The notes: generated from the sequence alone by a model not told the origin. DNA of 19,309 nucleotides from a virus (IMGVR_UViG_2690315742_000008:1-19309); one strand, 5' to 3'; positions 7,542 to 8,312 are shown, numbered from the stretch's first letter. Numbers and translations are program-made.

Positions 7542-7592
7542 TCACCAGCTATGCGCCGACCAGAACACCTTGCCGATCAGCCAAACGTCTCT
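7542..7592 (-). pseudogene. Remnant of the 3' end of a second, related cI allele (encodes …RDVWLIGKVFWSAHSW-stop), directly downstream of and in frame with the intact cI stop
   Basis: Compare with the intact cI C-terminus …ETVRIIGRVFWSSHSW. Nucleotide stretch 7549-7582 is roughly 75% identical to 7612-7645 by hand alignment. Confidence 0.55.
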
Positions 7593-7604
7593 TCAGGCCA
7601 CTGG

Positions 7605-8312
7605 TTACCAACTATGAGACGACCAGAATACTCTGCCAATAATCCTTACGGTTTCATGAAATTCATCTCTATCCATTACTTCATCCGGGTACTCTTCGCG
7701 ATTTATTGATCTGATTATCACCGACGTGGGGGTGGCGATTAATGTTTTTACTCGTAACAAATCAGACTGGCAAATAGCGTAGGTTTTACCATCTCTGATT
7801 GTGGTATCTTGCGTGTTAACACCAACAACATCGCCATCGTGAAGCGTTGGTTCCATGCTTTGCCCTACAACCCTAACTAGCTTGGCTGATCTTTCAGATA
7901 CCCCCATCTTTTTTAGATAGTGCTTTCTGAAAACCAAAGAGAACTCCGATGATTCCTCTAGCTCGCAGCTACCGCTTCCAGCTGAAAGCGAAACGTTAAG
8001 AAGAGGCAACGCAACAAACTCGTCATCGTTTCTTTTAATGTCTTCCCATACCACAGCTTTTAAAGATGACTCACGGATATTGGATGGTTCTTCATGTGCA
8101 CCATCCCTCATTTCACCAATACCAGAACTAAGCCATTCAGGGCGCACTTTTAAAGCATTGGCTAATTCAACCATCTTGCGAGATCCGTTTGTTTTACCGG
8201 ACGACATCTTCTGTATGGCTGGCTGAGATATTCCAACCATGTCAGCAAGCTGTGATTGTGATACCCCAGCTGAGCTCATGGCTGCATTTAGTCTTTCTGC
8301 GAATGTTTTCAT
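7605..8312 (-). CDS. cI: CI-type prophage repressor (N-terminal HTH, C-terminal LexA/S24-like autocleavage domain), about 235 aa
   Basis: HTH segment QSQLADMVGISQPAIQKMSSG and S24 signature GQSMEP with a downstream Lys. Divergent from cro across an operator region. Start set at ATG 8310-8312, because the track TTG start at 8342 would place the 5' end inside operator site 8325-8338. Confidence 0.85.
   Translation of the reverse strand: MKTFAERLNAAMSSAGVSQSQLADMVGISQPAIQKMSSGKTNGSRKMVELANALKVRPEWLSSGIGEMRDGAHEEPSNIRESSLKAVVWEDIKRNDDEFVALPLLNVSLSAGSGSCELEESSEFSLVFRKHYLKKMGVSERSAKLVRVVGQSMEPTLHDGDVVGVNTQDTTIRDGKTYAICQSDLLRVKTLIATPTSVIIRSINREEYPDEVMDRDEFHETVRIIGRVFWSSHSW

Follow-up and report, generated by a model that had tools for sequence, protein, structure and literature searches.

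The window analysed here is a stretch of 19,309 nucleotides (nt) of viral DNA (IMGVR_UViG_2690315742_000008:1-19309), in which an intact repressor gene, cI, is followed on the minus strand by a short untranslated block and a two-gene cargo cassette (Table 1). The cI gene runs from an ATG at 8312 to a TAA at 7607-7605, its product has the C-terminus ETVRIIGRVFWSSHSW, and copies that are 100% identical to this allele exist in many IMG/VR prophages. Our subject is the junction block behind it, which begins one nucleotide (a C) after the cI stop codon and ends at the border of the cassette-specific leader.

Table 1. Features of the cI-to-N interval of the window, in the order in which they follow cI.
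Feature	Position	Strand	Evidence and remarks
Intact cI repressor, 235 aa (amino acids), ends in VRIIGRVFWSSHSW-stop	7605..8312	-	Pfam HTH_3 and Peptidase_S24
Functional tail copy, last 16 cI codons and stop	7605..7655	-	Sequence reading
Whole junction block, left border of the cargo slot	7542..7603	-	Alignment with the tail of L251; conservation ends at the fossil stop codon
Layer (a), CAGTGGCCTGAAGAGACGTTTGGCTGA, reads QWPEETFG-stop	7577..7603	-	Identical to the cI ends of lambda and mEpX1
Layer (b), TCGGCAAGGTGTTCTGGTCGGCGCATAGCTGGTGA, fossil repressor tail IGKVFWSAHSW-stop	7542..7576	-	100% lambda sequence down to 7546
Cassette-specific leader of the cargo	7428..7541	-	Identical wherever the PDC-M63 cargo occurs
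Cargo gene A, DUF6932 protein, 159 aa, PADLOC PDC-M63A	6948..7427	-	Pfam 1.8e-24; PADLOC 1.1e-41
Cargo gene B, 310 aa, PADLOC PDC-M63B	6019..6951	-	PADLOC 7.5e-45; without a Pfam family
Timm-type intrinsic terminator, right border of the slot, hairpin 6012-5993 and T-run	5962..6013	-	Terminator scan and fold
Left operator and promoter region (OL/PL), promoter-like TTGACC-17-TATCTT at 5807-5779	5775..5875	-	Operators with TATAAC...GTTAT half-sites, as in the right operator (OR)
N antiterminator gene, far end of the immunity region	5285..5584	-	Weak Pfam N_peptide match; 97% identity with lambda relatives in the N region

A repressor tail behind cI

The block repeats the end of the gene that precedes it. 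Continued past its stop codon, the cI frame reads P V A stop R D V W L I G K V F W S A H S W stop, in other words PVA, a stop and then RDVWLIGKVFWSAHSW up to a second stop, the TGA at 7544-7542, as the original prediction for this stretch had stated. It had estimated the identity between 7549-7582 and 7612-7645 at about 75%; a recount yields 26 of 34 nucleotides (76%), and the two 16-residue tails have 10 residues in common. A gapped local alignment of 44 nt reaches a score of 22, compared with 7.7 ± 1.3 (maximum 15) in 2000 shuffles. Thus, the tandem repeat of the cI tail exceeds chance and is real. Two open reading frames (ORFs) on the plus strand, at 7493-7642 and 7551-7709, were dismissed as mechanical antisense products of the repeated tail.

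Comparison with phage lambda places this repeat in a broader context. Window positions 7546-7603 correspond to positions 37196-37253 of lambda (NC_001416) and are 100% identical to them (58/58 bases). Lambda cI ends at 37227, and the common stretch comprises its last nine codons, including the stop codon, together with the initial 31 nt of the spacer between cI and rexA, which correspond to the start of layer (b). The sequence QWPEETFG-stop of layer (a) is the genuine 3' end of lambda- and mEpX1-type cI genes, and base-by-base alignment shows that cI runs into the block in both phages and stops at its TGA; in mEpX1, the block is then followed by the same cargo as in the window. In the window itself, a complete cI of another family, its TAA and the single C precede the block, with layer (a) out of frame and untranslated. 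The repressor gene is hence not directly followed by a remnant in its own frame, as had been proposed, but adjoined by the QWPEETFG-stop tail of a lambda-type cI in another frame. In phage SH2026Stx1, a window-type cI (93.5% identical) is likewise followed by TAA-C, although only by the first 27 nt of the block and then by a DUF3024 gene. The junction TAA-C-CAGTGG was found in about 20 window-type relatives; as the alleles that have the junction TA(A/G)-C-CAGTGG are only 83-100% identical, it must be old.

These comparisons bear directly on the simplest explanation of a tandem repeat, an in-situ duplication of the cI 3' end through slippage or unequal crossing-over, followed by divergence of the distal copy. 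Such an event would account for two copies that lie head to tail, in the same frame and 63 nt apart. However, unrelated cI alleles, including that of lambda, are followed by sequence identical to the distal copy, a finding that effectively refutes a local duplication. Moreover, the 24% divergence between the copies corresponds to the level seen between alleles, and certain intact alleles are closer to the distal copy than is the window's own tail (L245, with 32/34 matches, and L251).

Origin and decay of the block

Intact alleles ending in VRIIGKVFWSAHSW-stop exist at several loci (L005 and L029, with 265-codon frames, as well as L251, L253 and others). When aligned with the 3' end of L251, which terminates in QFHEQVRIIGKVFWSAHNW-stop, the block matches over its full length with a single 2-nt insertion (AC at 7588-7587), giving a score of 61, with shuffles at 14.3 ± 2.7 (maximum 27). 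For eight further intact tails, the scores range from 39 to 60, so that all nine fall between 39 and 61, with shuffle means of 13-15 (standard deviation 2-3). The block thus shows significant homology to the 3' end of genes for CI/LexA-type S24 repressors, as expected for a pseudogene fragment, and it does not form an ORF: the frame of the remnant is preceded by the TAA at 7607-7605 and by an in-frame TGA at 7594-7592, and it has a net +2 frameshift relative to the intact tails. Because the whole block aligns to the L251 tail with only one 2-nt insertion, layers (a) and (b) are best read as a single fossil, left by the final ~17-19 codons of a cI allele from the window's family and shifted in frame by a net +2. 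An interpretation as two separate fossils was given up, since both layers align as one frameshifted tail. Translation of the remnant by read-through or frameshifting was also rejected, given that read-through of the TAA meets a TGA after three codons and that there is no slippery heptamer at the change of frame.

A fossil of this kind may also lie at the origin of the C-terminus of lambda CI. In a protein alignment, the lambda sequence VVGKVIAS-QW pairs with IIGRVFWSSHSW in the window, the terminal W of the tail is invariant among lambda-type and other alleles, and PEETFG forms a six-residue extension past it. In line with this result, the Pfam S24 profile leaves the last 10 residues of lambda and mEpX1 CI uncovered, compared with 6 in window-type CI. 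These comparisons show PEETFG to lie beyond the shared fold. We infer that lambda-type cI genes, in lambda and many relatives, are fused to the fossil just after their own terminal W and read three or four fossil codons in the original frame (PEE, T) before they stop at the shifted-frame TGA. Lambda PEETFG would then be derived from the fossil, and layer (a) would afterwards have gone its own way, serving lambda-type cI genes as their actual end.

Searches for a function of the block were negative. No Rfam family matched at E≤1 over positions 5700-8500, a scan of 7542-7607 detected no promoter-like or terminator-like site, and neither strand of the block folds better than shuffled sequence (z-scores -0.2 to -0.5). 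The original prediction had named a conserved terminator or small RNA as the alternative to a remnant, and the block contains neither a hairpin followed by a U-run nor an Rfam match; furthermore, no more than about 22 of 80 relatives of the window's cI have any part of the block. There is also no indication of an att- or attC-like site, with no notable self-complementarity on either strand and a slot that lacks an integrase and is flanked by cI and the cargo. Readings of the block as an RNA element, a terminator or a promoter were rejected on the basis of the Rfam search, the scans and the folding analysis.

The changes that the block has accumulated are informative as well. Our first survey of its 29-nt core fixed an amino-acid pattern, so that the 100% conservation it returned is partly a result of its construction. 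We therefore turned to an unbiased sample, in which loci were anchored on the neighbouring P22-type tail, ETK(M/L)RLV-stop. Among the matches listed, the core is present in about half of the loci and shows, in the fossil frame, the changes H>Y, F>L, V>M, A>T and W>R and a TGG>TGA nonsense mutation, in addition to 1-2-nt indels and a 17-nt deletion between two TCGGC repeats, a pattern without coding constraint. Given these non-synonymous, nonsense, indel and deletion changes, the block appears to be an untranslated, slowly decaying relic. It is also dispensable for the repressor, because most relatives of the window's cI have other sequence downstream: among the 80 examined, 31 have one unrelated sequence type behind them, 16 another and about 20 layer (a) only, with a single one (on the same contig as L011) showing the arrangement of the window. 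Conversely, most QWPEETFG-stop tails, among the matches listed, are not followed by layer (b).

An alternative that needs to be considered is that the block represents a selected cis element, such as a signal for RNA processing or stability, a spacer that counters polarity, a binding site for a protein or a Chi-like recombination signal. Consistent with this idea, its core is identical in many contexts, even when the preceding 29 nt differ at 6 positions (L008 and L039), and the block is predicted always to be part of the read-through transcript from the promoters PRM and PRE, just 5' of the cargo. In addition, the fossil in the window, mEpX1 and HK544 ends in GCTGGTGA (7542-7549 on the minus strand), which matches Chi (GCTGGTGG) at 7/8 positions. 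However, lambda reads GCTGATAA at this place, and since TGG-TGA represents the Trp and stop codons of the fossil, the Chi-like ending is probably coincidental. The negative structure and signal searches, the lesions in the unbiased sample and the absence of the block behind most window-type cI genes, and of layer (b) behind most QWPEETFG-stop tails, all argue against a selected element, which we consider quite improbable.

Proposed cassette exchange between two borders

The block composed of layers (a) and (b) is present in 209 of 5,426 complete Escherichia coli genomes and in phages lambda, mEpX1, HK544, SfI, VT1-Sakai and various Stx phages. P22 and 434 themselves are not among the carriers of the core; record V00639, which had appeared to identify 434 as a carrier, was rejected, as it contains the lambda rex region. 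Across 63 core-bearing junctions, at least 18 upstream clusters are combined with at least 15 downstream clusters (600 nt on each side), pointing to wide reassortment. The window's cargo alone occurs with six upstream types and the rexAB side of lambda with five. Over 32 combinations of flanks, conservation extends from ~25 nt before the core to the fossil stop codon and then drops abruptly to background. In addition, a linked polymorphism within the block (GGCTGATC versus GGGTGATG) shows all four combinations with the upstream types U1 and U5, so that crossovers must have occurred inside layer (a).

The range of cassettes found behind the fossil is broad. In the window, cargo genes A and B are co-oriented, overlap and both match the hidden Markov models of PDC-M63, which is listed by PADLOC as a candidate defence system. 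In the one functional test found, deleting PDC-M63AB from E. coli NILS69 gave no defence phenotype when virulent phages were tested as a panel (bioRxiv 10.1101/2024.12.20.629700). The same fossil also precedes RexAB, BstA (1e-120), PDC-S13, PDC-M66 (a HipA-like kinase with a DUF3037 protein), a P63C protein, an NYN-domain protein and a SocA/Panacea-domain protein at other loci.

On its far side, the slot is bounded by a Timm-like terminator, with which 13 of 15 cargo clusters end at a distance of 0.9-1.7 kb from the fossil. The segment 6013-5962 is 94% identical to lambda sequence just past rexB, and the equivalent feature in the HK544 record is annotated as Timm by Degnan et al., with nothing annotated at the cI-distal block. 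PDC-M63 cargos lose their identity to the window at 5958-5990, irrespective of the upstream type. Conversely, three loci with the same cI (L178, L180 and L183) match the window over 9262-7603, contain a different insert of ~340 nt and match again from 6013. This insert is the most frequent sole occupant of the slot in phages whose cI is identical to that of the window. In the three loci (locus positions ~3710-4049), it starts with ATGGAATTTCTGATAGTTTTTGTTGTTG (MEFLIVFVVV...) and may encode a small hydrophobic peptide.

The order of features in the window (cI, 8312-7605; the block; cargo, 7427-6019; terminator; OL/PL at ~5800; N) corresponds to that of the interval between cI and N in lambdoid phages, which is known as a hotspot both for mosaicism and for moron loci (Degnan et al., 2007, cited by Owen et al., 2020, 2021; PMC8585504, PMC7067206). 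As expected for exchange at such a site, different cargos occur with the same immunity, and the same cargo occurs with different immunities. The OL/PL region, located beyond Timm and the cargo, is conserved in phages with the same cI allele and, judging from its operators, must co-vary with cI. An exchange of the cassette between the two borders is therefore favoured over a swap of the allele, since the latter would leave OL/PL, on the other side of the cargo, without its matched repressor.

In other prophages, such repressor tails are stacked up to five deep and in several orders. Four loci (L009, L022, L045 and L060) contain a triple stack of PEETFG-stop, ETKMRLV-stop and IGKVFWSAHSW-stop. 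In Enterobacter intestinihominis and at L257, a P22-type cI is followed by layer (b) and then by TAGC and layer (a), the reverse of the order in the window, and L281 has five elements between cI and the cargo, among them a hydrophobic ORF of 23 codons and the fossil of a P22-type tail. In E. coli strains 23CRST013 (L391) and ET5 (L392), a repressor ending in EAREWLKNS-stop precedes a fossil window-type tail (SSSRSW-stop), TAAC and the block (locus positions ~2580-2665); after this buried junction comes rexAB in 23CRST013 and PDC-M63 in ET5. The junction of window-type tail, TAAC and block is therefore of such an age that a newer allele has come to lie over it, and at least two cargos have been joined to it.

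A small hydrophobic ORF (MREYLIVGVVTLLSVVAIVLMVA-stop), whose 3' end enters another copy of layer (a), lies between tail fossils at L281, L389, L025, L027 and L028 and may represent a tiny membrane-peptide moron.

With these data at hand, the original interpretation of the repeat can be reassessed. It envisaged a private and recent scar, in which recombination within cI had replaced the immunity allele and left behind the tail of the allele that immediately preceded it. The presence of a repressor remnant, its position at the cargo junction and the involvement of recombination are all borne out. A private scar would leave two diverged tail copies in tandem, and the rarity with which window-type cI, the block and PDC-M63 occur together (one IMG/VR contig and 0/5,426 complete E. 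coli genomes) implies that some recent recombination produced this arrangement. However, the remnant is base-for-base lambda sequence and stands behind cI in lambda, mEpX1 and numerous E. coli genomes, so that it cannot be assigned to a previous allele of this prophage. It goes with the cargo side, as the same cargo has it in six other upstream contexts. Likewise, the adjoining tail is of the lambda type and in another frame, its junction is common to alleles that are only 83-100% identical, and the same junction lies fossilised under another repressor family. The crossovers map to the block, past the stop codon of the intact gene, rather than within cI. Of the two events originally offered, the insertion of new cargo, in the form of a cassette swap, fits best, whereas a swap of the allele only, with OL beyond the cargo having to match cI, fits less well. 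Taken together, a private scar appears unlikely, if somewhat less so than a selected cis element.

We instead read the sequence 7542-7603 as a dead fragment of an old repressor gene that has no detectable cis function and provides shared homology for the exchange of cassettes and alleles, an interpretation to which we assign a probability of roughly 80%. In this scheme, the block would persist passively because the repressor gene on one side and the accessory cassette on the other are both under selection, and it would offer 24-60 nt of homology common to otherwise unrelated phages. Crossovers within it, paired with others at Timm or beyond, could move cassettes between immunity types, and they could also place new repressor alleles before old tails. 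The window appears to be a rare recombinant of two common halves, window-type cI with layer (a) and the block with PDC-M63, whose homology to the window overlaps at 7622-7576. In agreement with this notion, L177, which has an identical cI, matches the window through layer (a) to 7576 and then diverges, differing inside layer (a) only by GGG versus GGC. A crossover in this ~24-47-nt overlap, together with a second one at or beyond Timm, would directly give the arrangement of the window, with a phage of the window's immunity and a phage carrying the block and PDC-M63, similar to mEpX1 or to the U5 type, as the proposed parents. We infer that the exchanges were homologous, of the RecA or Red type, and that the first joins were illegitimate. 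Lambda Red efficiently recombines short and diverged sequences, including ones with 22% divergence (Martinsohn, Radman and Petit, 2008; PMC2327257). That study names rexA only as an insertion site for constructs.

Several points weigh against this interpretation. Homologous crossover within 24-60 nt is deduced from the positions of breakpoints, and illegitimate recombination with selection at gene boundaries might still account for individual events. The block may have a weak cis role, for instance in spacing, Rho protection or mRNA stability, and the bias of the first survey was corrected only for the P22-type context. Moreover, the IMG/VR loci are non-independent samples. As to the fossil itself, the 2-nt insertion could be two 1-nt insertions, as in the alignment with L247, and its left end is uncertain, with the assignment of CAGTGG to the fossil or to the body of a lambda-type gene depending on 5/9 matching bases.

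Relation to known systems

Gene remnants and shared patches at mosaic joints are well known in lambdoid phages, as is the hotspot between cI and N. The closest counterpart of the window's junction is the cI-rexA junction of lambda, where the identical bases occupy the same position, leading from the repressor gene to an accessory operon with PRM as its promoter. Lambda translates the first 27 nt (as QWPEETFG-stop), whereas in the window they come after a complete cI that belongs to another family and remain untranslated; furthermore, the lambda copy ends in AGCTGATAA and is followed by rexA, whereas that of the window ends in AGCTGGTGA and leads to PDC-M63. The parts of the hotspot description that are relayed by later work (Degnan et al., 2007, via PMC8585504 and PMC7067206) agree with the window in the interval concerned, accessory genes co-oriented with cI, a Timm end and RexAB or BstA as cargo. 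A search of the full-text literature on the hotspot, which did not cover Degnan et al. (2007) itself, returned no description of a repressor tail as its left border, of the stacking of tails or of the implication for PEETFG.

According to the modular theory, the joints between modules of lambdoid phages contain short conserved linker or boundary sequences, including homeologous 'shoulders'. The block resembles them as a short patch shared between unrelated modules and is compatible with Red recombination (PMC2327257), but differs in that it is a pseudogene fragment from the family to which the neighbouring gene belongs, with measurable neutral decay, rather than a conserved functional sequence or a gene end in use.

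P2- and P4-like elements harbour diverse defence cassettes at one locus, flanked by conserved functional core genes. They have in common with the window that defence cassettes occupy one bounded locus and are exchanged among related elements. In the window, by contrast, the flanks are a ~60-nt dead tail and a ~50-nt terminator, with cI/OR and OL just outside on the two sides.

The main significance of the block thus lies in its proposed role as the stretch of homology that borders a known cassette hotspot on the left, which would refine rather than overturn views of phage mosaicism at one well-known locus. Both borders of the slot are shared across phages with otherwise unrelated repressors and cargos, providing a concrete view of how cassettes may enter and leave the interval between cI and N, with a dead tail on one side and Timm on the other. 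In practical terms, the fossil offers a simple sequence anchor to mine prophages for defence cargo, given that RexAB, BstA and several PADLOC candidates lie behind it. The stacked tails may, in turn, be readable as a record of successive immunity replacements, and the fossil suggests how the six C-terminal residues of lambda CI may have arisen in evolution. It is tempting to go one step further and view dead tails as portable homology arms and the segment from cI to Timm as a quasi-modular exchanger of defence cassettes among heteroimmune lambdoid phages, with stacks as an immunity record and PEETFG as an accident of reading the frameshifted fossil of another repressor family. This generalisation is tentative, and we put it at clearly less than even odds.

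Some minor observations concern the window itself and the databases searched. The terminator scan detected only one, weak terminator-like hairpin between cI and the cargo, at 7489-7470 on the minus strand in the PDC-M63 leader (GCCGTCACCATTTCGGTGGT followed by TAGATTTTTA), located between the fossil and the start codon of the cargo; it could attenuate read-through from PRM or be due to chance. A scan of species-representative genomes for the core gave 29 hits (L362-L390), 24 of which show the exact lambda cI-rexA junction over the tested stretch, in mostly implausible hosts (Kitasatospora, Fusobacterium, Helicobacter, Bradyrhizobium and others). The contigs with lambda-like hits are often ~48.5 kb long, or tiny and of low coverage, and the hits in Caballeronia and Desulfovibrio have the same lambda-type flanks with slight differences; the sequences indicate that the 24 exact matches probably reflect contamination of public assemblies with lambda DNA. 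The three non-lambda prophage hits come from Enterobacter bugandensis, E. intestinihominis and Siccibacter colletis. Similarly, record MW057783.1 ('Campylobacter phage CJLB-4', 48,361 bp) contains the lambda junction with 100% identity at lambda-like coordinates and, like V00639.1 ('Phage 434'), looks like mislabelled lambda sequence. Finally, on the plus strand of the window, positions 10050-12443 encode a 797-aa DnaB-type replicative helicase that is interrupted by an intein, with Hint and LAGLIDADG homing-endonuclease domains between its DnaB N- and C-terminal domains.

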